From assembly GCA_964533945.1 (NCBI GenBank), contig CAZHPA010000001.1, forward strand, positions 59,455 to 123,454: 64,000 nucleotides of DNA, in the 5' to 3' direction. The stretch comes from an uncultured Defluviitaleaceae bacterium. GTDB lineage: Bacteria > Bacillota > Clostridia > Lachnospirales > WRBF01. The number at the start of each line of letters is the position of its first letter. Within the stretch, counting starts at the first letter, position 1. The notes beneath the pieces are model-generated. The model was not told the origin of the DNA and did no database searches. It worked only from the letters and a program-made list of their open reading frames with translations. A program made the position numbers and the translations under genes. Positions 3,620 to 64,000 of this stretch are shown here, piece after piece.

Positions 3620-5781
3620 TGAGCTGTGAAAAAATTGAATTAATTAAAAGCCAAAAAGTGTTGGCAGAACTAAATTATGAACCTATTGCAGTTTCAAAAG
3701 GATATACAGACAAAACACTTTATATAAATGTTTCCGATAACAGCATTAAAATTAAAGACGTTCCCGAACACGTTCGCAAAAACTTTATAGGCGGCAAAGG
3801 TTATGGGCTTTACAGCTTGTGGAACGCAATTAAAGACAACACAAATTGGTTCAACCCAGAAAATGAAATTGTTATAGCAAGCGGCCCTATAGCCGGAATT
3901 GTTCAATACCCCGGTTCTGGAAAATCAATTGTTGTTTCGCTTTCGCCGCTTTCAAATAACGTTATGGATTCAAACGTAGGTGGACATTTTGGACCCTATT
4001 TAAAATTTAGCGGCTTCGATGCTATAGAATTACAAGGCAAAACCGAAAACGATGTTGTCATATATATTAATGGAAATACCAACACAATTAAAATTTATGA
4101 AGCAAATTATGAATTTACAGATAGCCATATATATTCGCAAGAACTAACAGAAGCTTTTGCCGAAAATGAGGAAGACAAGCGCAATATTTCTGTTGTTTCA
4201 ACAGGAAGTGCTGCAAAACATACGCATATTGGGTTAATTAATGTTTCTTTCTACGACAAAAGACGAAAAGAGCAGCGTTTAAAGCAAGCAGGGCGTGGCG
4301 GGCTTGGAACGGTTTTTGCAAATAAAGGAATTAGAGCAGTAGTTGTACATTTTAGCGGCACATCAGCAGATACAAATAATTCCGTAGATTTAAAAACAAT
4401 TCAGCAAACAGGCATTAAACTACACAAAGAAATACACGACTTAGACGCAATTCAAGCACAAAAACGTGAAGTTGGTACGGCAAATATAGTTGAAATTATG
4501 AATGACTACGATTTATTGCCATGCTACAACTTTAAGTATGGTTCAAACCCCGAAACTATTAAAATAGATTCAAAAAATATTAAAAAAATTGTAACACAAG
4601 AGGTACCCGATGGCTGTTGGTTTGGCTGTTCATTAGCTTGTGCTAAAGCCGCAGATTGTTTCTTACTTAAAACAGGACCATATAAAGGACAAAAAGTTTT
4701 AATTGACGGCCCCGAATATGAAACAGTTTCGGCAGTTGGTTCAAACCCCGGCGTTTTTAATATGAATCATGTTTTTGAATGCAACTTCTATTGCGACACA
4801 TATGGGGTTGACACTATAAGCTTTGGAACATTAACTGCCTTTTTAATGGAATGTTACGACTTAGGCATTTTAAACAAAGAGCGCACAGGTGGTTTAGAGC
4901 TTTGTTTCGGAAATGGTGATGCAATGCTTGAACTTTTGCACCAAATGAGCAGTGGAACAGGTTTTGGCTTAATTGCAGGGTGTGGCGTTGAATACTGCAA
5001 AAAATATTTTGTTGAAAACTTTGGGGCAGACGAAGCCATCGTTAACGATATTGGCATGGTTGGAAAAGGGCTTGAAGTTTCGCAATATATGTCTAAAGAA
5101 TCTATTGCACAGCAAGCAGGCTATTTTATAACGAATAAAGGACCTCAACACGACGAAGCATGGTTAATTTTTATGGATATGGTTAACAATCAAATTCCAA
5201 CATATGAAGATAAAGCCGAAGCACTGCACTATTTCCCAATGTTTAGAACATGGTTCGGGCTTTTAGGGCTTTGCAAACTTCCTTGGAACGACATTGAGCC
5301 AGCAAACAACCGCCAAACCGCAGAACCGGCAAAAGTTCCAGAACACGTTGACAACTACTTGGCATTATACAAATCGGTTACAGGAATTGAAATTAACAGA
5401 GACGATATGATTAGAATGTCTGAAAAAGTATATAACTTCCAAAGAGTTTTTGTTGCAAGGAGAGGCTATGCAAGCCGTAAGCACGATACACCACCATATA
5501 GAGCAGTTGGACCTGTAACGAGAGAAGAATATATTTCAAGAGCAAGCCGCTATGATAAACAACTTGCAGAATTGGGAGTTGATATAAACGGCAAAACTGT
5601 TGAAGAAAAGCTTAACATTTTGCGCAAGCAACGGGAAAAAACATATCAAGAACTTTTAAGCGTTGTTTACAAGCGCAGAGGTTGGGATGAAAACGGCATA
5701 CCTAAAATCGAGTTTTTAAAGGAAATAGGCATGGATTATCCGGAAGTTTTAGAAGTTGTTGAAAGGATTAATAAGATATGA
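3619..5781 (+). CDS. aldehyde:ferredoxin oxidoreductase family protein (W/Mo-pterin), long 720-aa YdhV-like form
   Basis: AOR N-domain signature (GYTDKTLYINVSD...FIGGKGYGLYSLW) and a large AOR C-domain. GTG start overlaps the ferredoxin stop by 1 nt. Confidence 0.9.
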   Translation: MSCEKIELIKSQKVLAELNYEPIAVSKGYTDKTLYINVSDNSIKIKDVPEHVRKNFIGGKGYGLYSLWNAIKDNTNWFNPENEIVIASGPIAGIVQYPGSGKSIVVSLSPLSNNVMDSNVGGHFGPYLKFSGFDAIELQGKTENDVVIYINGNTNTIKIYEANYEFTDSHIYSQELTEAFAENEEDKRNISVVSTGSAAKHTHIGLINVSFYDKRRKEQRLKQAGRGGLGTVFANKGIRAVVVHFSGTSADTNNSVDLKTIQQTGIKLHKEIHDLDAIQAQKREVGTANIVEIMNDYDLLPCYNFKYGSNPETIKIDSKNIKKIVTQEVPDGCWFGCSLACAKAADCFLLKTGPYKGQKVLIDGPEYETVSAVGSNPGVFNMNHVFECNFYCDTYGVDTISFGTLTAFLMECYDLGILNKERTGGLELCFGNGDAMLELLHQMSSGTGFGLIAGCGVEYCKKYFVENFGADEAIVNDIGMVGKGLEVSQYMSKESIAQQAGYFITNKGPQHDEAWLIFMDMVNNQIPTYEDKAEALHYFPMFRTWFGLLGLCKLPWNDIEPANNRQTAEPAKVPEHVDNYLALYKSVTGIEINRDDMIRMSEKVYNFQRVFVARRGYASRKHDTPPYRAVGPVTREEYISRASRYDKQLAELGVDINGKTVEEKLNILRKQREKTYQELLSVVYKRRGWDENGIPKIEFLKEIGMDYPEVLEVVERINKI

Positions 5782-5975
5782 TAACACTAAACAACCGCCC
5801 TATGGAATACGAACAAGGCATGACTATTAAAAAATTAATTGAATTAATGAACTACACATACCCTACTTTAATTGTTAGAGTTAATGGAGAATTATTTGAA
5901 AATTATAATGAAATAAATATACCTATTAAAGACGGAGATTTTATAGAAATACTTCATCCAATTTGCGGAGGATAA
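5778..5975 (+). CDS. ThiS/MoaD-family ubiquitin-fold sulfur-carrier protein
   Basis: 65 aa ending in ...HPICGG (C-terminal Gly-Gly). Translationally coupled to the AOR gene by an ATGA overlap. Confidence 0.75.
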   Translation: MITLNNRPMEYEQGMTIKKLIELMNYTYPTLIVRVNGELFENYNEINIPIKDGDFIEILHPICGG

Positions 5976-5978
5976 AAT

Positions 5979-6290
5979 ATGAGAATTACGGAACACCCTA
6001 TTTTACAGTTTAATCGTGGTAAAAAAGTTAATTTCATATTTAACGGCACTTTAGTTTCGGGCTATGAAAATGAAACAATTGCAGCAGCGCTTCATGCTTT
6101 GGGCGTACGTGAAATTAGCCATAGCGCCGAAAAACATCGCCCCCGTGGATTATATTGCGCAATAGGCAATTGCTCCTCATGCATGATGATTGTTAACGGT
6201 ACGCCTAACGTTAAAGTTTGCCTCGAACTTGTTAAAGAAGGTATGGTTGTTCAAACACAAAAGGACAAAGGAGGGCTTTTGTGTGATTGA
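5979..6290 (+). CDS. (2Fe-2S)-binding small subunit (HcnA / sarcosine-oxidase-alpha N-terminal-like)
   Basis: 103 aa with GLYCAIGNCSSCMMIVNGTPNVKVC, typical of the 2Fe-2S_4 domain. Confidence 0.7.
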   Translation: MRITEHPILQFNRGKKVNFIFNGTLVSGYENETIAAALHALGVREISHSAEKHRPRGLYCAIGNCSSCMMIVNGTPNVKVCLELVKEGMVVQTQKDKGGLLCD

Positions 6291-7356
6291 AACAGAATTA
6301 CTTATTATAGGCGGTGGGCCAGCAGGGCTTTGTGCTGCAATTCAAGCCGGAAACTTAGGTGTTAATACAATAGTTTTAGATAGAAGCGCAAATTTCGGCG
6401 GACAACTTGTTAAGCAAACCCATATGTTTTTTGGTTCGGAAAAACAATATGCTTCAACAAGGGGTTTTGATATTGCAGAAATTCTTGTTGAACAAATTAA
6501 TAAATTAAAAAGTGTAAAGCTTTTAGATGAAGCAACAGCACTTGGCATTTACGAAGATGGGGTTGTAACTTGCGAAGTTAAAGGAAAATATTTAAAATAT
6601 AAGCCGAAGGCAATTATAGCTGCAACAGGTGCTTATGAAAAAACTTTGCTTTTTAAAAATAACGATTTACCCGGCATTTACGGTGCAGGCGCTGTTCAAA
6701 CGCTAATGAATCAATATGGCATAGTACCCGGAAAACAAGTTGTTATGGTTGGAGCAGGCAACATTGGGCTAATTGTTTCATATCAGCTTTTGCAAGCAGG
6801 CGTTAAAGTTAAAGCAATTGTTGAAGGCGCAAGCGAAATTGGCGGATATCTAGTACACGCAAGCAAACTTAGGCGTATGGGAGTTCCAATTTTAACACGG
6901 CATTCAATTAAAGAAGCACACGGGGAAAATAATTTGGAAGCCGTTACAATTTGGCAACTTGACGATAATTGGCAAGGCATTTGCGGCACAGAAAAACTAA
7001 TTGAAGCTGATGTTTTATGCGTTTCTGTCGGGCTTTCTCCTCTTTGCGAACTGCTTTGGCAAGCTAAATGCGAAATGGTTTATGTTAATTCGCTTGGCGG
7101 TTTTGTTCCTAAACGAAACAAAGATACCCTTTGTACAACCGTACCGAATATTTTTGTTGCCGGTGACGTTTCAGGCGTTGAAGAAGCGTCAAATGCTATG
7201 GTTTCGGGATATTTGGCAGGGCTTTCAGCTTCTGAATACTTAGGATACTTTCCGCAAAATACACAACAGCTAAGAAACGAATATTTAAATCAATTGGAAA
7301 GCTTGCGTAAATTAAGTCATTCGCATACCAATAGCTTAGAACAACTTTTAATATAG
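6283..7356 (+). CDS. FAD/NAD(P)-binding pyridine nucleotide-disulfide oxidoreductase subunit
   Basis: GTG start 7 nt after GGAGGG. LLIIGGGPAGLCAAIQ and VVMVGAGNIGL dinucleotide folds, plus FVAGDVSG. Confidence 0.8.
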   Translation: MIETELLIIGGGPAGLCAAIQAGNLGVNTIVLDRSANFGGQLVKQTHMFFGSEKQYASTRGFDIAEILVEQINKLKSVKLLDEATALGIYEDGVVTCEVKGKYLKYKPKAIIAATGAYEKTLLFKNNDLPGIYGAGAVQTLMNQYGIVPGKQVVMVGAGNIGLIVSYQLLQAGVKVKAIVEGASEIGGYLVHASKLRRMGVPILTRHSIKEAHGENNLEAVTIWQLDDNWQGICGTEKLIEADVLCVSVGLSPLCELLWQAKCEMVYVNSLGGFVPKRNKDTLCTTVPNIFVAGDVSGVEEASNAMVSGYLAGLSASEYLGYFPQNTQQLRNEYLNQLESLRKLSHSHTNSLEQLLI

Positions 7357-7388
7357 AATTTTTATTTATAAGGAAGACGAGAAAATTT

Positions 7389-7886
7389 ATGTTAAAACAA
7401 ACAGGAATACCAACTTTAGATAATATAAACAATGTTTTTCCTACTTTAGAGCGGCTTAATAAAGGTGCGGTTGCCGTTGTTGAATGTTTTGAAAAAATAC
7501 CATGCAACCCTTGCTACACTGCTTGTAAGTTTGGTGCAATTAAGCAATTTGACGACATTAACGACTTGCCTGTAATTAATCACGACAAATGCAATGGCTG
7601 TGGCATTTGCTTGGCAAAATGCCCAGGGCTTGCAATTATGGTTGTTGACTATACATTTTCAGAAACAGAAGCGTTAATTAAAATTCCATACGAATTTTTG
7701 CCACTTCCACAAAAAGGACAAACAGTTAAAGGGCTAGACCGCTCCGGTAATTATATTTGCGATGTTTTAGTTGTTAACGTTTTAAATAACAAGGCACTTG
7801 ATAAAACGCCGATTATTTCGATTGCTGTAAACAAGCAATTTATTAAATCTATTAGAAATATAGAGGTGGTAACGGAAAATGAGTGA
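7389..7886 (+). CDS. 4Fe-4S-binding small subunit
   Basis: CNPCYTACKFG and CNGCGICLAKCP motifs; 165 aa. Confidence 0.7.
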   Translation: MLKQTGIPTLDNINNVFPTLERLNKGAVAVVECFEKIPCNPCYTACKFGAIKQFDDINDLPVINHDKCNGCGICLAKCPGLAIMVVDYTFSETEALIKIPYEFLPLPQKGQTVKGLDRSGNYICDVLVVNVLNNKALDKTPIISIAVNKQFIKSIRNIEVVTENE

Positions 7887-8178
7887 AACTATAGTTTGCC
7901 GCTGTTCCGATTTAAACATTGATGAAATAAGACAATTAATTAAAAATGGGTTCACAACTATCGACGAACTAAAACGAATTGCAAGGCTTGGTATGGGAGC
8001 TTGTCAAGGACGAAACTGTATACCGTTAGTTATGCGCGAACTTTCAATAGCAACAGGTGTTCCCGTTTCCGAAATTTCTGCAGGAACTTACCGTCCGCCA
8101 ACCAAATCCATTACACTTGGCGAAATTGCTAAATCAGCAGAAGTTAAAATGAAAGAAGGCGGCTATTTCCATGATTAA
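7879..8178 (+). CDS. BFD-like (2Fe-2S)-binding small subunit
   Basis: CRCSDLNIDEI...GMGACQGRNC pattern. Overlaps both neighbouring genes, consistent with translational coupling. Confidence 0.7.
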   Translation: MSETIVCRCSDLNIDEIRQLIKNGFTTIDELKRIARLGMGACQGRNCIPLVMRELSIATGVPVSEISAGTYRPPTKSITLGEIAKSAEVKMKEGGYFHD

Positions 8179-15658: not shown

Positions 15659-17578
15659 ATGAACTTAGTACAAAAAATTATTAGCTCTCATTTATTAAAA
15701 GGCAACGCTGAAAATGGAAGCGAAATATGCATTAAAATAGACCAAACATTAACTCAAGATTCAACAGGCACAATGACATATTTGCAGCTTGAAGCAATGA
15801 ATATTGATAAAGTTAAAACTAAAAAATCCGTTGCATATATAGACCACAACACACTTCAATCGGGCTTTGAAAATGCAGATGACCATAAATATATACAAAC
15901 AGTTGCCGCTAAACATGGCGTATATTTTTCAAAACCCGGCAACGGTATATGCCATCAAGTTCATTTAGAACGCTTTGGAAAACCCGGCGAAACACTTTTG
16001 GGCTCAGATAGCCATACGCCAACGTGCGGCGGACTTTGCATGCTTGCAATTGGTGCAGGCGGGCTTGATGTTGCTATAGCTATGGCAACCGGCGAATACT
16101 ATTTAACTATGCCAAAAGTTGTAAAAGTTAATTTAACTGGCAAGCTAAATAAAAACGTTGCGGCAAAAGACATTATTTTAGAAGTTTTAAGAAAATTAAC
16201 CGTTAAAGGCGGCGTTTCAAAAATTATTGAATACGGGGGAGAAGGCGTTAAAACTTTAACAGTTCCGGAACGTGCAACTATAACTAATATGGGGGCAGAA
16301 TTAGGCGCAACAACTTCTGTTTTTCCAAGCGACGAGCAAACGAAGATTTTTTTAGAAGCACAATGCAGAGAAACCGACTATATAGAACTTCAAGCAGATA
16401 GCGATGCTACATATGATGACGAAATAACTATTAATTTGTGCGAATTAACACCGCTTGTTGCTTGCCCTCACAGCCCTGATAACGTTTCAAAAGTTTCAGA
16501 GCTTAAAGGAATGAAAGTTGACCAAGTTGCAATTGGAAGTTGCACAAATTCTTCCTTTGCCGATTTAATGACTGTTGCCCAAATTTTAAAAGGGAAGAAT
16601 ATTAATGAGAACGTAAGCCTTGTTATAGCGCCCGGTTCAAAGCAAGTTCTTTCAATGCTTGCCAAAAATGGTGCATTAGCAAGCATGGTTGATGCCGGAG
16701 CAAGAATTTTAGAAAGCGCTTGCGGCCCTTGCATTGGAATGGGGCAAGCGCCGGCAACAGATGCTGTTTCTTTAAGAACTTTTAACCGTAATTTTTATGG
16801 AAGAAGTGGAACAACATCTGCAAAAATATATATTGTTAGCCCAGAAGTTGCGGCGTTTAGCGCAATTAGCGGCGTTTTGGAAGACCCAACAGAGTTTGAA
16901 AGCGCTAAATTTGAAGATTTGCCTAAACGTTATGATATTAACGATAACTTAATAATAGCGCCTCCCGAAAACAATTTAAACGTTGAAGTTGTTAGAGGTC
17001 CTAATATTAAACCTTTCCCTGTTAATGAAAAATTGCAAAATTGCATAGAAGCTTCAGCTTTAATTAAGCTAGGCGACGACATAACAACAGACCACATTAT
17101 GCCTTCTAATGCAAAGCTTTTGCCTTATCGTTCAAATGTTCCTTATCTTGCCAACTTTTGCTTAACTCCTTGCGACGAACAATTCCCACAAAGAGCAAGA
17201 GAGCAAGGCGGCGGAATAATTGTTGCAGGTAATAATTATGGTCAAGGTTCAAGCCGTGAACATGCGGCATTAGCGCCTGTTGAACTTAAAATTAAAGCTG
17301 TTTTAACTAAGTCTTTTGCAAGAATACATGAAGCAAACTTAATTAATAATGGCATACTTCCTCTTGTTTTTGTTAATGCTGAAGATTACAACAAAATTAA
17401 TCAAGGTGATAAACTAACACTTGAAAATATATATGAAGGTTTGAAAAATGACGGGATTTTAACACTTAAAGTTGGGGAAAATGAAATTAAAGTTAAAGCT
17501 AATTTATCAGAAAGACAAAAAGAAATTATACTATCGGGCGGAAGACTTAACGAACTAAGGGAGAGAGCAGCGCAATGA
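15659..17578 (+). CDS. acn: aconitate hydratase
   Basis: 639 aa. Fe-S ligand motifs (GSDSHTPTCGG, IGSCTNSS, CGPCIGMGQ) and a swivel domain (GNNYGQGSSREHAA). Confidence 0.9.
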   Translation: MNLVQKIISSHLLKGNAENGSEICIKIDQTLTQDSTGTMTYLQLEAMNIDKVKTKKSVAYIDHNTLQSGFENADDHKYIQTVAAKHGVYFSKPGNGICHQVHLERFGKPGETLLGSDSHTPTCGGLCMLAIGAGGLDVAIAMATGEYYLTMPKVVKVNLTGKLNKNVAAKDIILEVLRKLTVKGGVSKIIEYGGEGVKTLTVPERATITNMGAELGATTSVFPSDEQTKIFLEAQCRETDYIELQADSDATYDDEITINLCELTPLVACPHSPDNVSKVSELKGMKVDQVAIGSCTNSSFADLMTVAQILKGKNINENVSLVIAPGSKQVLSMLAKNGALASMVDAGARILESACGPCIGMGQAPATDAVSLRTFNRNFYGRSGTTSAKIYIVSPEVAAFSAISGVLEDPTEFESAKFEDLPKRYDINDNLIIAPPENNLNVEVVRGPNIKPFPVNEKLQNCIEASALIKLGDDITTDHIMPSNAKLLPYRSNVPYLANFCLTPCDEQFPQRAREQGGGIIVAGNNYGQGSSREHAALAPVELKIKAVLTKSFARIHEANLINNGILPLVFVNAEDYNKINQGDKLTLENIYEGLKNDGILTLKVGENEIKVKANLSERQKEIILSGGRLNELRERAAQ

Positions 17579-54447: not shown

Positions 54448-55407
54448 TTGATAGTAATAAATTCTCCCTTTTATCATTTTTTCACAAGTATAGCATATAT
54501 AGACAATAACATTATAATTGCAGCTTCAAGCGATGCAATTATTAGAGTTTTTAATACAATGACGCACACTATGCTAAAATGTATAGCATATTCAAACAAT
54601 GATTATCCTTCCACTTTTGTAAATTCAATTAATTTTAATGAAAACAGAAATAAATTTTTAACATCATCAATTGATGGTCAAATTGTCGAGTGGAACGCTA
54701 ACGATTTTTCAATAAATTGCATTTTTAAATTACACCAAGGGGAAGTAATTGATTCTTTTTATTGTAAAGATTCAAATTATTGTTTATCGTGCTCTACAGA
54801 CCGAACGATTAAAAGATGGAATATTAGTACAGGCAAAGTGGATTACTGCGCTAAAAGTCATAGCAACGCAATTAACTCTATTAATCAGTCTTACGATGAA
54901 AAAACGATAATATCATGTTCTGATGATGGAACCGTTAAAGAATGGGACTATTATACTGGAATTCTAATTGACACATTAATGAGTTATAATAAACCTATTA
55001 GTAATGTATTATATACTTCTAATAATGAATTAATTATAATTAATATCAATATGGGTTCACTTATTGCGTTTTCTCGAAAACATAAAAAGATTATCTGGGA
55101 ACTATCAGGTCATTGGTCTAAAATGGTTTATAATCCCGTAATTAACAGCTTATACGCTATTAATGTCGACGATTCAATTTATGAATGGAGCATTCCTTTA
55201 TTTAAACAGATAAGAATATATAAAACTGAAAAACAATCTAATCCTACCTGCATTTCGTTTAGTGCTAATTATTTAAAAATAATTGTTTCGTATAGTAATG
55301 GTTATTTTAAGGAATGGGATTGTATGAATGGTCAATTAATATCTTTTTTTGAAAGTGGACTTGCGTATAATTATTTCAAAGGCATTGGTACATACAAGAT
55401 ATTATAA
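54448..55407 (+). CDS. WD40-repeat beta-propeller protein
   Basis: TTG start after TGGAGG. Blades recur at about 40-aa spacing and end in DGQIVEWN, DRTIKRWN, DDGTVKEWD, DSIYEWS and NGYFKEWD. Confidence 0.75.
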   Translation: MIVINSPFYHFFTSIAYIDNNIIIAASSDAIIRVFNTMTHTMLKCIAYSNNDYPSTFVNSINFNENRNKFLTSSIDGQIVEWNANDFSINCIFKLHQGEVIDSFYCKDSNYCLSCSTDRTIKRWNISTGKVDYCAKSHSNAINSINQSYDEKTIISCSDDGTVKEWDYYTGILIDTLMSYNKPISNVLYTSNNELIIININMGSLIAFSRKHKKIIWELSGHWSKMVYNPVINSLYAINVDDSIYEWSIPLFKQIRIYKTEKQSNPTCISFSANYLKIIVSYSNGYFKEWDCMNGQLISFFESGLAYNYFKGIGTYKIL

Positions 55408-55532: not shown

Positions 55533-56534
55533 TTATACTAATTCGGAATTCGCATATGCATTAAGCCATAAATTACTAACGCTTCCTTTTTTATAGTTAA
55601 AATATCCACAAGATGCTATCATTGCCGCATTGTCTGTGCAATATACAGGGCTTGGAATGTTTAATTCAATTTCATTTTCAAGGCAAGCTTGCTTCATAGC
55701 TGCTCTTAATGCGCTATTGCATGAAACACCGCCTGCAAGCGCTATTTTTTTAATATTTAATGCTTTTGCTGCTGCTATAGTTTTTTTAACCAAAACTTCT
55801 ACAACGGCCTTTTGAAACGAAGCTGCAACATTTTCAACAACAATTTGTTCTCTTGTCATATTACACTTATTAATATAATTTAAAACCGACGATTTAAGCC
55901 CGCTAAAACTAAAATCTAGGCTATCTGAAAGTGCTTGGGGAAAAATAATTGCATTTTCATCGCCATTTTTTGCGGCTAGGTCTATTTTAGGGCCTCCTGG
56001 GTAGCCTAAGCCTAAAGCTCTTGCAGCTTTATCAAAAGCTTCTCCGGCGGCATCATCTCTTGTTTTGCCTAAAACTTTATATTTAGAAAAATCTAAAACA
56101 TGAACAAGGTGTGTATGCCCTCCTGAAACAACAAGACACATAAAAGGTGGTTTGAAATTTGGGTTTTCAATATAGTTGGCGCAAATATGCCCTTCTATAT
56201 GATTTACGGAAACAAGTGGCTTCTTTAATGAATACGACAAACCTTTTGCATACGAAACGCCAACAAGCAAAGCACCTACAAGACCGGGGGTATTTGTAAC
56301 GGCTATTGCATCTATATCATTAAAATTAACAGAAGCGTTTTTCAACGCTTCATCAACAACTTGACTTATAATTTCCATGTGTTTTCTTGAAGCAATTTCA
56401 GGAACAACGCCGCCGAATTTTTCGTGTATTTTAATTTGAGATGCTATAACGTTTGAAGCAACAAATGTTCCATCATAAACAACGGCGGCAGCCGTTTCAT
56501 CACATGATGTTTCAATACCTAATATTCTTAACAT
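55533..56534 (-). CDS. tsaD: tRNA N6-adenosine threonylcarbamoyltransferase
   Basis: [23 protein letters not shown] and VSGGHTHL. Confidence 0.93.
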
Positions 56535-57208
56535 TAACTTTTAATCCCTCTGGCTTCCCTATTATAAATAATTACTTGCAACAAAGCTAACACGCAAATT
56601 ATTCCAAGCAGCCAAAGTCTGGCAGAAGCAACATAATCTATTGCAGTACCAAAAGTTGACTCAAAAAAATATGAAATATTGCTAGTAAATTGTTCAGCAT
56701 AAAAAAATGCTGATGTAGCAAATTGATATAATTTAGGGGAATTTGCAAAAGATGATAATACAACATCTTTATAATACATTGCTAAAATTGAAAGCCCAAG
56801 AGAAACAGATATAAAAGCCCAAGTAAAACAAAGCACAGACTCAAGCGGATTATTTTTTTCTCCGTGAACTTCAATTAATTTCGACAATTCGGAATCCATT
56901 TCCAATTTAAATTCAGGTTCTAGTTCCGGTTCTCTACATTCCAGATGCTCCAGATGTTCTTCCATATGAACAGCTGGTTTATATAAAGATTCTTCTGCTA
57001 TTTTAAGCATAACGCTTTCTTCAAAGCCTTCGGGTGCGCTAATTATTTCCATAGCCGAAAATTCAGCCATAATTTCTTCATAAACCGAAAAATCTTCTTT
57101 GCAAGCGCTGCATGAAGAAAGGTGTCGATTAAGCAATATTGTTTCAGTGGGAGTAATTGTTTTGTCCATGCAACGCATCATTAAATCGTTATATTTATCA
57201 CAGGACAT
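56534..57208 (-). CDS. anti-sigma factor (zf-HC2 type), membrane-anchored
   Basis: [15 protein letters not shown]...[12 protein letters not shown] zinc-finger motif and C-terminal TM segments. Overlaps the sigma gene stop. Confidence 0.7.
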
Positions 57209-57776
57209 AGTTATCACCGCCTCTAATTTGCAATAAACTTTCTTTCAACATTTTCCTACCTCTAAAAATCCGATTTTTAACTTTCGACAGTGGCTCTTCA
57301 ATAACTTCCGATATTTCTTGGTATGATAAGCCTTGTTGATGATATAAAACAATCGGTATTTTATACATATCGGGCAATGCCCCAACAACTTCTTTTAACT
57401 GCTTTTTTTGCTCTTTTTTTAAAAAAACATCTTCTGGGGAAGGCTCGTTGCCTGAAGGCACAGCTCCGCCTTCCAAATCATCTATAAACGTTGTTTCGGC
57501 CCGACGTTTTCTTCTATGGTCTATAACATGGTTTGTTGTAACTCTAATAATCCATGTGCTAAATTTAAAATCGGGACGATATTTTTCAAGACTTCTATAT
57601 ACTTTTATAAAAACTTCTTGTGCAAGGTCATTTGCTTCCTCGCTGTCGTTTGTCATTCGCAAAATTATAGAATAAACAAGGTTTTTATATCTTGTTACAA
57701 GTTCGCTAAAAAAACTGTTGTCCCCGTTTATACAGTTTGTAATTAATTCGTAATCGGTTAGTTGTTTCATATCCAT
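57198..57776 (-). CDS. ECF (sigma-70 family group 4) RNA polymerase sigma factor
   Basis: Region 2 (LAQEVFIKVYRSLEKY...FSTWIIRVTTNHVIDHRRKR) and region 4 (GLSYQEISEVIEEPLSKVKNRIFRGRKML). Confidence 0.88.
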   Translation of the reverse strand: MDMKQLTDYELITNCINGDNSFFSELVTRYKNLVYSIILRMTNDSEEANDLAQEVFIKVYRSLEKYRPDFKFSTWIIRVTTNHVIDHRRKRRAETTFIDDLEGGAVPSGNEPSPEDVFLKKEQKKQLKEVVGALPDMYKIPIVLYHQQGLSYQEISEVIEEPLSKVKNRIFRGRKMLKESLLQIRGGDNYVL

Positions 57777-58902: not shown

Positions 58903-60054
58903 ATGGTTAAAGTTTCTTTATCAAGGTGTAATGACTATAACTACAACGAAGTTAAAGCAGCAGTTTTAAAATCTATTGAAAAATTGGGCGGATTGGAAAA
59001 ATACATTTTAAAAGGCGATAAAGTTTTGTTAAAAGTTAACCTTCTTATGAAAAAACCCCCAAGCTATGCGGCAACAACTCATCCTACTGTTGTTAGAGCA
59101 TTAGCTGAAATTTTAATTAGTTATGGCGCAACCGTTGTAATTGGAGACAGCCCAGGAGGGCCTTTTAATGAAAAAATGCTTGCAGGTATATATAAAACTA
59201 CAGGTATGGAAGAAATTGCAAAACTAACAGGGGCAACGCTAAATTCTAATTTTAAATCTTGCGAAAAAGCAAATCCAAAAGGGGTGCTTTTAAAGCAATT
59301 AACGGTTACAGATATGTTAAATGACGTTGATAAAGTAATTTCAGTATCCAAACTTAAAACACACGGTATGATGACGTTTACAGGTGCTGTTAAAAATATG
59401 TTTGGAATTATCCCCGGAATAATGAAAGCAGAATACCATTTAAATATGCCGGAAAAGCCTGTTTTTGCCGATGCCTTAGTTGATATTTGCGTTTGTGCAA
59501 ATCCTGTTTTGTCTTTTATGGACGCAATAGTTGGAATGGAAGGCGCAGGACCTTCTGGCGGCGATGCAAGAAACATTGGGGCAATTATAGCTTCTGAAAG
59601 CCCATACCATCTTGACAAGGTTGCTTGCTCTATAATCAACATTCATTTTTCTAAAGTTTTAACAATTAAAAAATCAATAGAAAGAGGACTATGTTCAGAT
59701 GGGCTGTCCGACATTTTTCTTTTGGGAGACGAAGGCATTGATTCATTTAAGCAGGCAAACTTTAAAATACCAGAAACCATAGAAGTTGATTTTGGTAAAA
59801 AAGTTCCGAAGCCACTGAGAGGGCTAGTTAATAAGCATTTACAACCTCGCCTCATTTTTGATGAAAGCAAATGCATAGGGTGCAAAGTTTGTATTAATAA
59901 TTGCCCTGTTAAAGTTTTAACTATGGAAAAAGGTAAGAAAATTAAAATTAATTCAGAAAAATGCATTCGTTGCTATTGCTGCCAAGAACTATGCCCAGAA
60001 AAAGCTGTTACGGTTTATCGTTCAAAGTTACTTAAATTTTTAGTTTCTTATTGA
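58903..60054 (+). CDS. DUF362 domain protein with C-terminal 2x[4Fe-4S] ferredoxin domain
   Basis: DUF362-like body (KVLLKVNLL...VVIGDSPG...SKLKTHG) plus CIGCKVCINNCP and CIRCYCCQELCP. Confidence 0.75.
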   Translation: MVKVSLSRCNDYNYNEVKAAVLKSIEKLGGLEKYILKGDKVLLKVNLLMKKPPSYAATTHPTVVRALAEILISYGATVVIGDSPGGPFNEKMLAGIYKTTGMEEIAKLTGATLNSNFKSCEKANPKGVLLKQLTVTDMLNDVDKVISVSKLKTHGMMTFTGAVKNMFGIIPGIMKAEYHLNMPEKPVFADALVDICVCANPVLSFMDAIVGMEGAGPSGGDARNIGAIIASESPYHLDKVACSIINIHFSKVLTIKKSIERGLCSDGLSDIFLLGDEGIDSFKQANFKIPETIEVDFGKKVPKPLRGLVNKHLQPRLIFDESKCIGCKVCINNCPVKVLTMEKGKKIKINSEKCIRCYCCQELCPEKAVTVYRSKLLKFLVSY

Positions 60055-60078
60055 GCTGCTGTTAAGGCAGCTCTTTTT
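60053..60078 (+). terminator. strong intrinsic terminator closing the DUF362 gene, immediately before the cassette-like array
   Basis: GAGCTGC-tgttaag-GCAGCTC followed by TTTTT. Confidence 0.8.
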
Positions 60079-60154
60079 GGTAATATAATAAACTCGTGGT
60101 GCATTAGGAGCACATTAATATTTTAAGGATTATTTATAAGGAGGTTAAGTATAA

Positions 60155-60934
60155 ATGGCAAAATTTGAATTTGATGGTGAAAAATATAAACAGGCATCAA
60201 AACATCAAAAAGAATGGGGCAATAGCATAATTTCTGAACTGGAGCTTAATGGAGATGAAATAATTTTAGACCTTGGATGTGGTGATGGAGTTTTAACCGA
60301 ACAACTTTCAAGGTTAGTACCTAATGGTAAAGTTATTGGAATTGATGCGTCTGTTGGAATGATTAACACAGCAAAAAAGCTTGAAAAAGATAATCTTACT
60401 TTTATTTGCATGGATATAAATAGCATGAATTTTGCAGACCATTTTGATGTAATTTTTTCAAACGCTGCATTGCATTGGATAAAAGACCATAAACGATTAT
60501 TAAAAAATAGTTTTAAAGCTTTGAAAGGTAATGGAATTATTAGTTGGAACTTTGCCGGTGACGGTAATTGTTCAAATTTTTTTCACACTATAAAAGCTTT
60601 GATGAAAGAAAATGCCTATAAAGAATATTTCTCAAATTTCGAATGGCCATGGCTCATGCCTTCAAAAGAGGAATATGAAAAATTGATTAATGAAGCGTGT
60701 TTTAGCAATATAAATATACAATACAAAAATGCAGACAGGTTTTTTTCTAGCTGCGATGAAATGATAAGATGGATTGACCAGCCAAGCATAGTGCCATTTT
60801 TAAATTATATACCTAATGCAAATAGAGAAAGCTTTAGAAATGAAGTTGTTAATATAATGATTGAAAAAACCAAACAACCAGACGGCAGATGTTTTGAAAC
60901 GTTTAGAAGGATAAATGTAAAAGCCACCAAATAA
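60155..60934 (+). CDS. class I SAM-dependent methyltransferase (Tam-like)
   Basis: AAGGAGG RBS. ILDLGCGDGVLT motif I and FSNAALHW. Confidence 0.8.
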   Translation: MAKFEFDGEKYKQASKHQKEWGNSIISELELNGDEIILDLGCGDGVLTEQLSRLVPNGKVIGIDASVGMINTAKKLEKDNLTFICMDINSMNFADHFDVIFSNAALHWIKDHKRLLKNSFKALKGNGIISWNFAGDGNCSNFFHTIKALMKENAYKEYFSNFEWPWLMPSKEEYEKLINEACFSNINIQYKNADRFFSSCDEMIRWIDQPSIVPFLNYIPNANRESFRNEVVNIMIEKTKQPDGRCFETFRRINVKATK

Positions 60935-60937
60935 GCG

Positions 60938-61030
60938 CAATAATTTGTTGTGTGCTTAACGAAGGAAACAATTATTATCTTGTAATTGTAATTGTAATTT
61001 AATTGCTAATATTAAAGATTATTTATATTT
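60938..61030 (+). repeat. intergenic module copy 1 (truncated: m1-like + m3 + m4, no hairpin)
   Basis: CAATAATTTGTTGTGTGCTTAACGAAGGAAACAA aligns to m1 of copy 4. ATTATCTTGTAA...AAAGATTATTTATATTT aligns to copy 2. Confidence 0.7.
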
Positions 61031-61054
61031 GCGAAATAGCAAGGAGAATGATTT

Positions 61055-61756
61055 ATGGATAAAAAGGTAGCTGTTGTAACTGGTTCAAGCAGTGGCATTG
61101 GTAATGCGATTTGCAAGGTTCTATTAAATAAAGATTATTATATTGTGGCTAATGGCAGAACGATAAATTCAGTTTTTAAGGAAACAGACCATTTGATACT
61201 TAATAATGGTGATATGCTAGAACCCCAAACATCTGAATTTTTATTAAATGATGCTTTAAACAAATGGGGTAAATGTGATGTAGTATGTGTTAATGCCGGA
61301 ATTATTGAATCTAATGCAATTGAAAATATCAACATAGATGCAATGTGTGAAATGGTTAGGCTAAAGGTTGAAATGTCGTTTAGACTTATCTATACTTTCT
61401 TAAAATATTTTAAAAAAGTAGGAAAAGGTCATATTGTTATAATTTCTAGTGTTATGGGTACTAAAACTCGTGAAAACTCAGGTGCTTATGCTGGGTGTAA
61501 CTATGCATTAGAGGCATTAGCTGAGTCGCTTAGAATGGAACTTTGTGATACAAATATAAAAATCACATGTATTGAGCCCGGTCTTGTTGAAACAGGATTA
61601 CATAGAAATTGGGATATAAAACCTAAAGAATTACTTGGAATATCAATGGCATTACAACCAATTGATATTGCCGAAGCAGTAATAGAAATACTTAATAAAC
61701 CTGAACATATTAGAATTCCTAAATATATGATTTTGCCAAAAGGACATAAAATCTGA
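61055..61756 (+). CDS. short-chain dehydrogenase/reductase family protein with atypical YxxxN motif
   Basis: VAVVTGSSSGIGNAI, VNAG and ISSVMG are canonical, but the YxxxK position reads YAGCN. Confidence 0.8.
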   Translation: MDKKVAVVTGSSSGIGNAICKVLLNKDYYIVANGRTINSVFKETDHLILNNGDMLEPQTSEFLLNDALNKWGKCDVVCVNAGIIESNAIENINIDAMCEMVRLKVEMSFRLIYTFLKYFKKVGKGHIVIISSVMGTKTRENSGAYAGCNYALEALAESLRMELCDTNIKITCIEPGLVETGLHRNWDIKPKELLGISMALQPIDIAEAVIEILNKPEHIRIPKYMILPKGHKI

Positions 61757-61766
61757 TTGAATAAAT

Positions 61767-61996
61767 AAATTGACACATGAGAAAATGAAAAATATTTCTG
61801 AATAAAATCCACCAAGTAAAATTAAGCGGCTTTCTTGCGTCCTAACATTGGGTTGTTGTCAAGTTATGACTAAGCAAAAAGCTTAAAAGCTATTATCTTT
61901 TAATTAAATTTTATGCTATTTTTTAATGAACAAATTAATTGTTATCTTATAACTATTATTTAACTAATAATAGCAAAGATTATTTATATTTTCGAG
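61767..61996 (+). repeat. intergenic module copy 2 (m1 61767-61810, hairpin m2 61834-61874, m3/m4 61932-61996)
   Basis: By eye, about 86% identity to copy 3 across m1. m2 carries GTCAAGTTATGACTAAG and m4 carries AAAGATTATTTATATTTT. Confidence 0.8.
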
Positions 61997-62008
61997 AAGG
62001 GTTATGAC

Positions 62009-62758
62009 ATGATAAAATTATATAAAAACAACGCCGTTTTGCATTCACTTGTTTGGCTTGGGCTTTATTTACTAATTAACACAATAACAGGTAATGTTGC
62101 AAGTATTTTAGCGGTTAACGATTATCTCGTGAGTTGCATACCGAATTTTATTTTGGCTTTTATTTGCTTTATTCATCTTTGTAAGAATAAAATATTAAGT
62201 GACATAGGTTTATTATGTAAGCCTAAAGAAAATGCAGGAAGTATGTTGTTTTACATTCCTCTGTTCGCTTTACCGTTACTGCCACTTCTATACGGAATTA
62301 ATACCGCAATTAAGCCTTTTGATTTATTCGCAATATTTTTAATGTACACAGGTGTTGGATTTATGGAGGAAATTATTTTTCGAGGATTCATGTTTAGGGC
62401 ATTAACAAATCAATGGAACAGAGTTGTGGTTGTGGCATTCATAAGTTTTACATTTGCGATTGGACATATTGCAAGTATGGTGGCTATCGGTCAATCCGGT
62501 TTTGATACGATATTGCAAATTATTAACGCTTTGGTTGTAGGCTTTATGTTTATGACGGTTATGCTTGCATCTAAAAATCTTACAATATGTGTAATTGCTC
62601 ATATTGCATATAATTTTATAGCTAACATTTCCTTAATGGGAAGCACTAAAACAGCGATAATAATTATAAATGCTGTTATTACCATTTTATATTTTATTTA
62701 TCTACTTTTCTATCGCAAAAATATAAAAGCATACTTTAATGGAACCACCAGTATATAA
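62009..62758 (+). CDS. CPBP-family intramembrane glutamic endopeptidase (CAAX protease/Abi, bacteriocin self-immunity type)
   Basis: Polytopic. EEIIFRGFMF, FAIGH and IAHIAYNF motifs. Confidence 0.8.
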   Translation: MIKLYKNNAVLHSLVWLGLYLLINTITGNVASILAVNDYLVSCIPNFILAFICFIHLCKNKILSDIGLLCKPKENAGSMLFYIPLFALPLLPLLYGINTAIKPFDLFAIFLMYTGVGFMEEIIFRGFMFRALTNQWNRVVVVAFISFTFAIGHIASMVAIGQSGFDTILQIINALVVGFMFMTVMLASKNLTICVIAHIAYNFIANISLMGSTKTAIIIINAVITILYFIYLLFYRKNIKAYFNGTTSI

Positions 62759-62791
62759 AGATGATAAGCATAATACTTACCATTGAATTGA

Positions 62792-62915
62792 TTAATTGTC
62801 ACATAAGAAAACGAAGAATATTTCTGAAGAAAATCCGTTATGTAAACCTTAGTGACTTTTATTGTCAAAAAATGCCATTAGCCCTAACATGAAGTGTCGT
62901 CAAGTTAGGGCTAAG
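62792..62915 (+). repeat. intergenic module copy 3 (m1 62792-62836, hairpin m2 62878-62915; m4 absent)
   Basis: m2 is the perfect 11-bp palindrome TTAGCCCTAAC-N15-GTTAGGGCTAA. Confidence 0.8.
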
Positions 62916-62962
62916 TGAAATACATATTTAATTTTAATTTTACATAAAGAAGGATGTTAATA

Positions 62963-63550
62963 ATGAGTCTAATTATGATGTATATGAAATCAATTTTTTT
63001 AAATTTATTACCGTTTATACCCATCATTATTTTAATAAGAATAGTTGCAATTTTATTATTAAGAAAGGACGGAATTAAAACCACGATACACCATGAAATG
63101 GGAACCGCCTTTTTTATATATTTTATGATTGCTTTGTTTTCATTAACGATTAATATTTCAGGGTTACTTAATTTTCTTGCATCGGGAATTAAAGGTTATA
63201 GTGATATAAATATAATTCCTTTTAGTGGAATAAAGATAATTCTGCAAAGCGGTGACATTGGTTATATATTTGTAAATATTTTAGGAAATATTCTTATCTT
63301 TAGCCCCACCGGTTTTTTGTTGCCTTTGTTGTGGAAGAAAACTAAGACTATTACAGCAGTTGTTTTTATTGGCTTCATGATCTCTTTGCTTATCGAATGC
63401 ATACAATTTTTTTCAAGTAGAGGCTCTGATGTTGATGATTTAATTTTAAATACTGTGGGCACATTTTTAGGTTATATAATATTTAGTTTGTTTTATAGAG
63501 TATTTCCTAAGTTTGCCGATAGATTTCTTATTAATAATACTTGTCATTGA
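62963..63550 (+). CDS. VanZ-family membrane protein
   Basis: The ATG with 9-nt spacing to AGAAGGA is preferred over 62954. C-terminal RGSDVDDLILNTVGTFLGY is typical of VanZ. Confidence 0.75.
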   Translation: MSLIMMYMKSIFLNLLPFIPIIILIRIVAILLLRKDGIKTTIHHEMGTAFFIYFMIALFSLTINISGLLNFLASGIKGYSDINIIPFSGIKIILQSGDIGYIFVNILGNILIFSPTGFLLPLLWKKTKTITAVVFIGFMISLLIECIQFFSSRGSDVDDLILNTVGTFLGYIIFSLFYRVFPKFADRFLINNTCH

Positions 63551-63555
63551 ACCAA

Positions 63556-63805
63556 TAAATTGTTGCATAAGAAAACAAAAATAATCCCAAAGTACAGCCG
63601 CCTTATAAAATTTTGGTGGCTGTACTGTCGAAAAATGTTTAGTCTGTCATTGGGGGGCTGTCAAGTTAGGACTAAGTTTTTTCAACAAAGAGTTGGAAAA
63701 GTTATTGTATATTTGATTTAGCTGCAGTATACTTGTGTACAATGAAGAAAATAATGATTATCCTGTAACTTTGAACAAGCGAACAAAAATAGAGATTATT
63801 TATAA
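63556..63805 (+). repeat. intergenic module copy 4 (m1 63556-63587, extra 11-bp hairpin 63592-63625, m2 63638-63676, m3/m4 63750-63805)
   Basis: TAAATTGTTGCATAAGAAAACAAAAATAATCC; GTACAGCCGCC...GGTGGCTGTAC; ...GCTGTCAAGTTAGGACTAAG; AGAGATTATTTATAAAAC. Confidence 0.8.
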
Positions 63806-63821
63806 AACAGGAGGTAACATT

Positions 63822-64000
63822 GTGCTTATTTCATTTGCGCAACAACAAGATTTAGACAGTTGGATGGACTTGCTACACCTTGTAAAGGATAATTTTCCTG
63901 GGTTGGATATGAGAGAATATAAAATTGCTCTGATGGAGTATATCCATAATGAACAGGCACTGATAGCTAAAACAGAAGACACTTTAGTAGGTGCATTAGC
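63822..64000 (+). CDS. GNAT-family N-acetyltransferase, N-terminal part (runs off window)
   Basis: GTG start 7 nt after AGGAGG. VLISFAQQQDLDSWMDLLHLVKDNFPG...ALIAKTEDTLVGAL is a GNAT-like N-terminus. Absent from the ORF track because it is truncated. Confidence 0.6.
   Translation, partial: MLISFAQQQDLDSWMDLLHLVKDNFPGLDMREYKIALMEYIHNEQALIAKTEDTLVGAL

Follow-up and report, generated by a model that had tools for sequence, protein, structure and literature searches.

What holds together a row of small genes that share no function, and how could such a row be assembled? This question is raised by the last part (nt 60079–64000) of a 64,000-nt stretch of DNA from an uncultured Defluviitaleaceae bacterium (contig CAZHPA010000001.1; the whole stretch is referred to below as the window). 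In this part, the open reading frame (ORF) listing and alignments revealed five plus-strand ORFs of unrelated function with homologous spacers between them. How small islands of unrelated accessory genes come together in Firmicutes has received little description, and arrays of the integron type are, to our knowledge, all but missing from this phylum. The evidence presented here favors, with a probability of about 0.5, a lineage-restricted array of accessory genes placed between repeated expression and insulation modules that double as portable homology for cassette exchange.

Alignment of the intergenic spacers (IG0 to IG4, Table 1) defined a module of approximately 250–300 nt which, from 5' to 3', consists of a block m1, a hairpin T1, a hairpin m2, a promoter-like stretch, and the AU-rich blocks m3 and m4, after which comes a ribosome-binding site (RBS). 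The module is a composite, and individual copies are without some of its blocks. Three copies of m1, starting at 61756, 62782, and 63546, form a 78-nt family with 63–78% identity. A first-pass annotation of this DNA had put the identity between m1 copies at approximately 86%, and alignment of 61767–61810 with 62793–62836 gave the same value (38 of 44 positions). Repeat searches further identified a three-copy family that ends in the m2 motif GTCAAGTTAkGrCTAAG. The corresponding pattern GTCAAGTTANGNCTAAG matched three times, always on the plus strand (at 61858, 62899, and 63660; 0.09 matches expected), and had no other match in the 64 kb when up to two mismatches were allowed. Block m4 (AGATTATTTATA; AAAGATTATTTATA as the consensus of a four-copy repeat family) occurs at 60127, 61016, 61977, and 63793, each time adjoining the 5' side of an RBS and 14–27 nt before a start codon; none was found elsewhere in the window with up to one mismatch. 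Block m3 is present 5' of the genes for the short-chain dehydrogenase/reductase (SDR), the CPBP protease, and the putative GNAT acetyltransferase, and the 3' end of the module formed by m3 and m4 (GATTATTTATA) abuts the RBS. At the opposite end, module homology begins 5' of m1 (AAGCATAAT...). The last six codons and stop codon of the VanZ gene, as well as the stop codon of the SDR gene, therefore lie in module-derived sequence.

Folding indicated that the spacer hairpins are far more stable than shuffled sequence. The arms of m2 are approximately 15 nt apart, with a loop of 7–13 nt. Three other roles for parts of the module were considered and rejected. Small ORFs on either strand were not conserved in frame across copies, which argued against a coding function. 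As a −10 box, m4 would in most copies cause transcripts to begin inside or after the Shine-Dalgarno sequence, and an interpretation of m2 as a minus-strand −35 box failed because no −10 box follows it.

The same module recurs at an unrelated chromosomal site in a second genome. The nearest relative of the CPBP protein of the window (P0122, 89% amino acid identity) is encoded in a metagenome-assembled genome (MAG; GCA_964638835.1, locus L050) with a GC content of 28%, vs. 34% for the window. At this locus, a LacI gene that closes a sugar-utilization cluster is followed by genes for a methyltransferase, a DUF3139 protein, and the CPBP protease, and then by a convergent Phd/YefM antitoxin gene. 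The methyltransferase is unrelated to that of the window, and the CPBP gene (90.4% nucleotide identity) is the only one common to both arrays. According to the alignment, the spacers of this second array contain the same module, with its blocks in the same order. The array opens with m3 and m4, which adjoin the LacI stop codon, and closes with m2. Here, T1 is a classic intrinsic terminator (AAAAACAGCCGAC...GTCGGCTGTTTTT; z = −4.3 in the single folded copy), flagged as such in all three spacers, in two of them on the plus strand and in the third on the minus strand. Downstream of T1 come an m2-like hairpin with a T-run and promoter-like sites (TTGTGA-17-TATTAT and TTAAGA-16-TATAAT), while m3 and m4 adjoin each RBS. 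Cassette-level variation, which the first-pass annotation had named as a check on its proposal of a cassette array, was thereby found between genomes, which strengthens the case for a cassette-like array. The Phd/YefM-type antitoxin gene (10906–11160 of L050, minus strand) abuts the last module and no toxin gene lies downstream of it; it may encode a solitary antitoxin, or one whose toxin partner the array displaced.

Comparison of the two arrays provided information on how they may have changed. Downstream modules were 87–91% identical within the second array, 70–78% identical within the window, and 65–72% identical between the arrays. Across arrays, the modules that flank the common CPBP gene were no more alike than pairs next to non-orthologous genes. 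Inside the CPBP gene, identity between the window and the second array was 85–100%, and it dropped to the level of the module at two points, the stop codon and a position approximately 30 nt ahead of the start codon. It appears that ORFs move from one repeat scaffold to another; a different picture would be expected of a cassette with a private site. The 72 nucleotide differences between the two CPBP genes are unevenly spread, with a 138-nt tract (window 62447–62584, L050 10439–10576) without a single difference. When the mismatch positions were permuted 20,000 times, no run of this length arose. Because the remainder of the gene is 85–89% identical, with frequent third-position differences, this tract points to recent recombination (gene conversion or horizontal transfer), in which the partner was either the other lineage or a third party.

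Copies of the module are also distinguished by deletions of whole blocks. In IG1, a remnant of m1 is joined straight to m3 and both hairpins are absent. In IG3, the RBS of the VanZ gene directly follows m2, and the promoter-like stretch, m3, and m4 are all absent, while in the second spacer of L050 the promoter-like stretch is joined to m4. Such block-sized deletions are as unequal recombination between repeats would produce. Judged from sequence comparison, the homogenization of modules within arrays, the identical tract, and the block deletions are together what would be expected of repeats that undergo gene conversion or unequal exchange with one another. At least one gene appears to have been exchanged between arrays of two uncultured, low-GC, Clostridia-like genomes.

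In the mechanism that is proposed for these arrays, m1 would act as a conserved AT-rich 3' block after the stop codon, and the T1 and m2 hairpins, the latter usually with a T-run, would terminate transcription of the upstream gene. The promoter-like stretch, a weak to moderate match to a sigma-A-type promoter, would then restart transcription, and an AU-rich leader that comprises m3 and m4 would end at the next RBS. With an RBS of its own for each ORF, the genes would mostly be insulated, separately expressed units; neighbors of the truncated copies IG1 and IG3 are probably co-transcribed. Because the same 250–300 nt flanks every ORF on both sides, the module could in addition act as portable homology. 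Recombination or gene conversion between copies would homogenize the modules, delete parts of them, and allow ORFs to be gained, lost, or swapped within and between arrays. By analogy, the reuse between genes of what look like ordinary expression signals points to a recombination scaffold of the promoter-early stem-loop (PeSL) type rather than to an attC site. If this interpretation is correct, it would provide a simple route to mobile, immediately expressible resistance-like genes (VanZ, GNAT, methyltransferase, CPBP).

Table 1. Position and composition of the cassette array and of its left border in the window.
Feature	Position (nt)	Strand	Basis or recognized elements
Upstream core gene, DUF362 / 4Fe-4S (ferredoxin) protein	58903–60054	+	Pfam
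Intrinsic terminator of the DUF362 gene, left edge of array	60053–60073, T-run to 60078	+	Terminator scan
IG0, array entry	60079–60154	+	TATAAT 60084–60089; m4 GGATTATTTATA 60127–60138; RBS
Cassette 1, class I S-adenosylmethionine (SAM)-dependent methyltransferase, Tam/BioC-like, 259 aa	60155–60934	+	Pfam Methyltransf_31/11/25; NCBIfam
IG1, truncated module, 120 nt	60935–61054	+	m1 remnant ~60937–60962; m3 60964–60981; m4 61016–61027
Cassette 2, SDR, 233 aa	61055–61756	+	Pfam adh_short
IG2, near-complete module, 252 nt	61757–62008	+	m1 61756–61810; m3 61931–61948; m4 61977–61988
Cassette 3, CPBP (Rce1-like, CAAX/Abi-type) intramembrane protease, 249 aa	62009–62758	+	Pfam Rce1-like
IG3, first (m1-to-m2) half of module only, 195–204 nt	62759–62953	+	m1 62782–62836
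Cassette 4, VanZ-family membrane protein	62954 or 62963 to 63550	+	Pfam VanZ; NCBIfam
IG4, complete module, 271 nt	63551–63821	+	m1 63546–63590; m3 63747–63764; m4 63793–63804; RBS
Cassette 5, putative GNAT-type acetyltransferase N-terminus, GTG start, 59 aa	63822 to beyond 64000	+	Motif reading only

The first-pass annotation had described five co-oriented, unrelated genes split by copies of one module, downstream of a strong terminator at 60053. ORF calls, Pfam matches, and alignments agreed with this description, and the terminator was recovered by the terminator scan. Its gene identities were supported by Pfam for the SAM-dependent methyltransferase, SDR, CPBP, and VanZ genes; the fifth, GNAT, was assigned by no tool and is retained here as a putative assignment based on our own reading of motifs. 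The 59-aa fragment of cassette 5 had no Pfam match, and its sole database relative (P0219; 76% identity, 89 aa) likewise was without a Pfam domain. In the locus of this relative (L137, 413–855), an apparent frameshift occurs at an A-run, after which the coding sequence seems to go on in another frame to about 855, so that the gene is either a pseudogene or affected by a sequencing error. No module was found around it.

Entry spacer IG0 contains m4 as its only module block, without m1, T1, and m3, as well as a small hairpin in which 60099–60102 pairs with 60110–60113. The m2 hairpin of IG2 spans approximately 61835–61877 (motif 61858–61874), in a region of −15 kcal/mol (z −2.0). IG3 has a first hairpin at 62798–62856, followed by TTTT, and an m2 hairpin at 62878–62914 (motif 62899–62915) in a region of −19.3 kcal/mol (z −5.6). 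In the complete copy IG4, the T1 hairpin (63591–63626; −22 kcal/mol, z −5.5) is followed by the m2 hairpin (63639–63676) with a T-run at 63677–63682 and by a promoter-like TTGTAT-17-TATACT at 63705–63733.

The GC content of the array was 30.2%, vs. 34.0% for the rest of the window. An independent 1.3-kb Logan contig (L139, run SRR10912416, same strain) is identical across the junction between the DUF362 and methyltransferase genes, which is therefore not an assembly artifact of one data set. This contig was all that a look-up with the DUF362 protein returned, and exact-protein look-ups for the methyltransferase, SDR, and CPBP likewise yielded no DNA past nt 64000. The window strain and two distant DUF362 relatives were encountered in one run series (L139 in SRR10912416; L005 and L004 in SRR10912416 and SRR10912415; L141 in SRR10912417).

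Searches for the module outside the two arrays covered the other 60 kb of the window, approximately 18 kb of DNA flanking the L050 array, and the other loci examined. Across this material, nhmmer profiles of the two module halves matched only the spacers of the two arrays, and not one module copy lay outside the arrays, either in the remaining 60 kb of the window or in the L050 flanks. The module is thus clustered, as the first-pass annotation had held, with 3–4 copies of each block within 4 kb. At the gathering threshold, Rfam matched no module family in the whole window, where its only match was a tRNA gene (2212–2284); at E values up to 5, both arrays yielded only terminator-driven, sub-threshold noise. 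A match to a known cis-regulatory family, which the first-pass annotation had named as one possible refutation, was therefore not found. In a genome collection, the very strict pattern m1...GTCAAGTTA gave no confirmed copy and one match in a Simkaniaceae MAG, presumed to be due to chance. Patterns for m2, m1, and m3–m4 yielded single chance matches or phage coding sequence only in viral contigs, and none of the 68 single matches of a 21-base m1 pattern in metagenome contigs was accompanied by any other module block.

When both arrays were compared by blastn with plasmid and phage collections, no module copy was found, and matches were limited to a Monoglobus methyltransferase gene and a spurious Arsenophonus match. 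The former is a homologue of the window methyltransferase gene (68% nucleotide identity), located on Monoglobus pectinilyticus "plasmid 4" (NZ_OY725728.1); no other public replicon showed DNA similarity to the array. In the region of interest there (5633–5852 and 6019–7924), a 110-nt tandem duplication precedes the homologue, and three small co-oriented genes (two encoding hypothetical proteins and one encoding a vicinal oxygen chelate (VOC) protein) follow. An interpretation of this region as an analogous array was rejected, as no convincing common spacer module was present. Homologues of the CPBP gene at three further loci (L051, 71%; L138, 74%; L052, 63%) had no module and were ordinary single genes or pseudogenes; with such 63–74% homologues elsewhere, the idea that the module travels with CPBP was also rejected.

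The window organism is without a close sequenced relative, its best DUF362 homologue being 66% identical. The closest DUF362 relatives (62–66% identity) showed three different downstream contexts, which were uninformative on insertion at the array site. In the closest of these (L003, 66% identity), an m4-like sequence (AAAGATTACTTATATAAT / AAGAATAAAGATTACTTATATAAT) with an RBS was observed at 17243–17297, 5' of an unrelated HD-domain gene (nhmmer E 0.003–0.04). The m4 leader may predate the arrays and have a wider distribution; alternatively, this may be a chance match in AT-rich promoter DNA. The module as a whole offers a concrete DNA signature with which Clostridia genomes can be searched.

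Genes upstream of the array encode the DUF362 protein, an RNase Z-like protein, an extracytoplasmic function (ECF) sigma factor, TsaD, a WD40 protein, GlmM, a racemase, Ddl, and an aminotransferase. No recombinase was present between 48.7 and 60 kb of the window (approximately 12 kb before the array), where only housekeeping genes and the ECF sigma factor were found, and the 10 kb to the left and to the right of the L050 array likewise contained none. An ECF-type sigma-70 factor gene (57198–57776, minus strand) is followed by a 227-aa ORF without a Pfam match, which possibly encodes an anti-sigma factor. This pair (56534–57776) lies 2.3 kb upstream of the array, and no link between the pair and the module was found. 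WD40 beta-propeller proteins are uncommon in Firmicutes, and the one in the window (54448–55407) is encoded among genes for cell-wall precursor synthesis (Ddl, racemase, GlmM).

Several observations weigh against expression modules that serve as portable homology. The array continues beyond nt 64000, and the stretch there could hold a recombinase. With two arrays and one common cassette known, breakpoint statistics are thin. In the window, the module hairpins were not flagged as canonical terminators, since they fail the T-run rule of the scan, and the promoter matches are weak, in DNA so AT-rich that promoter-like matches are frequent. Moreover, ORF-specific DNA is tightly bounded (from the RBS to the stop codon, with no more than 30 nt besides), and the reading frames of two genes extend into the module. 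In m2, TCAAGTTA..CTAAG, which comprises the loop and 3' arm, is conserved in sequence, yet its pairing partner is not conserved in L050; such a pattern would be more typical of a site recognized by a protein than of a simple terminator. Finally, homologous recombination would explain the shuffling of cassettes, but not the first entry of a new ORF between two modules. The conservation of m2, the tight ORF bounds, and the first entry of ORFs, which portable homology leaves unexplained, together keep a site-specific alternative alive.

According to that alternative, which is considered unlikely, the arrays would belong to a new site-specific cassette system, analogous but not homologous to integrons, in which an as yet unseen recombinase, encoded beyond nt 64000 or elsewhere, moves circles of an ORF plus a module. 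The recognized part would most likely be the m2 hairpin with its conserved loop and 3' arm, or m4. Tightly bounded, co-oriented, unrelated ORFs, two of which end in the module, recall the many integron cassettes that end in attC. Both arrays open with the 3' part of the module (m4, or m3 and m4) and that of L050 ends at m2; such edges resemble an attI-like entry and defined unit ends. Conservation of the m2 sequence beyond the needs of pairing and the presence of the same cassette in two arrays at unrelated loci fit as well, as does the higher similarity of modules within than between arrays, which is also the rule for attC sites (PMC4889954). However, a recombination site should always be kept, whereas IG1 has no m2 and IG3 no m4, and the common CPBP cassette carries no cassette-specific site from one array to the other. 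The absence of a recombinase gene from the start of the window array and from 10 kb around either end of the L050 array, and of further arrays from any collection searched, likewise speaks against this system.

A more specific version, in which recombination at the module would serve a hitherto undescribed cassette-capture system of Clostridia, an expression-ready analogue of the integron whose recombinase acts at m2 or m4, is regarded as doubtful. In such a system, each ORF would arrive with, or enter, a unit that brings terminators, a promoter, and a leader, and it would be the first cassette-capture system native to Firmicutes. Involvement of any dedicated recombinase would imply a new cassette system.

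It is also improbable that the module is solely a shared cis-regulatory unit, without a role in mobility, that places a stress or envelope regulon under one regulator, sigma factor, or RNA-binding protein, the arrays having arisen when a regulated promoter and terminator were duplicated locally. Block m4 does occupy a fixed place beside the RBS at seven of the eight gene starts, an m4-like sequence with an RBS precedes the HD-domain gene of the distant relative L003, and the genes have a common flavor of membrane or envelope functions and small-molecule modification. The ECF sigma factor and its putative anti-sigma partner lie close to the window array, but no sigma factor was found near that of L050. 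A binding site would account for 10–20 nt and not for 250–300 nt at 87–91% identity. Regulation alone would leave unexplained why the same module occurs with different genes at unrelated loci of differing GC content and why identity drops at the borders of an ORF, and no known regulatory RNA family in Rfam matches the module.

A dispersed repeat resembling miniature inverted-repeat transposable elements (MITEs), repetitive extragenic palindromic (REP) sequences, or BOX elements, inserted between the genes of an existing operon, is a very improbable source of the spacers. The module shares with pneumococcal BOX elements a modular structure in which subsets of blocks vary by copy, and its copies contain hairpins. 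However, neither terminal inverted repeats nor target duplications bound the copies, all of which have one orientation and register relative to the ORFs, and the searches described above gave no dispersed copies in the remainder of the window, the L050 flanks, or the other loci examined, and only chance or coding matches in the collections.

A canonical integrase-less integron array (cluster of attC sites lacking integron-integrases, CALIN) with degenerate attC sites, close to the integron/CALIN-like class in which the first-pass annotation had filed the locus, is scarcely credible: although the architecture fits and the m2 arms of IG3 (GCCCTAAC / GTTAGGGC) resemble R'' and R' core sites, no RYYYAAC...GTTRRRY pair 50–160 nt apart was found by regular-expression scan on either strand of 60055–64000 (single core sites, 2 and 5 on the plus strand, were unpaired at this distance), no integrase was seen at the start of the window array or within 10 kb of the L050 array, and a survey by Cury et al. 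found complete integrons to be lacking in Firmicutes (PMC4889954). The attC-like arms to which the first-pass annotation had pointed are not conserved, as CCCTAAC/GTTAGGG occurs in only one or two of six copies and the resemblance is lost in four of the six; the arms are also only 15 nt apart, without L boxes, and the CPBP cassette does not take a downstream site of its own from one array to the other, its flanks being more like those of its neighbors in each array.

As in phage morons (promoter-gene-terminator units), each gene appears autonomous, with promoter-like and terminator-like flanks beside unrelated genes. Morons, however, are without one homologous set of flanks, do not occur in arrays of five, and sit in prophages, whereas the array in the window is without phage genes and gave no matches in phage collections. 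Pneumococcal BOX elements and repeat units of pneumococcus (RUP), as well as enterobacterial REP and enterobacterial repetitive intergenic consensus (ERIC) sequences, are non-coding, hairpin-containing, and modular, with variable subsets of blocks, as is the module described here. These repeats number tens to hundreds per genome, are scattered throughout it, and have no link to variation in gene content, whereas the copies of the module are clustered and in register with ORFs.

Sedentary chromosomal integrons and CALINs share with the arrays unrelated co-oriented ORFs that are split by one repeated structured element, repeats that are closer within than between arrays, some ORFs that end in the repeat, and the occurrence of the same cassette in different arrays. 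They differ in that the module has no R''/R' core sites, L boxes, or hairpin of attC length, is accompanied by no visible IntI or attI, and also carries predicted expression signals on the promoter side; in addition, the common cassette keeps no site of its own and the host is a Firmicute.

The closest documented system appears to be that of the PeSL promoter/terminator cassettes, through which modules are shuffled in the hyperplastic regions of T4-type phages and which can form mini-circles (Arbiol et al., 2010, PMC2839356; Comeau et al., 2014, PMC4122927). In both cases, composite modules of a promoter and a terminator hairpin, both of them predicted in the arrays described here, are repeated between small, non-essential, unrelated ORFs and are clustered in a plastic region, where differences between relatives map to, or are bounded by, the modules. 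PeSL repeats supply homology for modular shuffling, and the repeats of the present arrays would do likewise. The module differs from PeSLs, with which it has no sequence similarity, in that it is located amid housekeeping genes in the bacterial chromosome of a Clostridia-like organism instead of in a phage. It is also several times longer (~250–300 nt), with two hairpins, a 3' block m1, and leader blocks m3 and m4, and its hairpins precede the promoter-like stretch. If the module does act as portable homology, PeSL shuffling, so far documented for T4-type phages, would extend to bacterial chromosomes.

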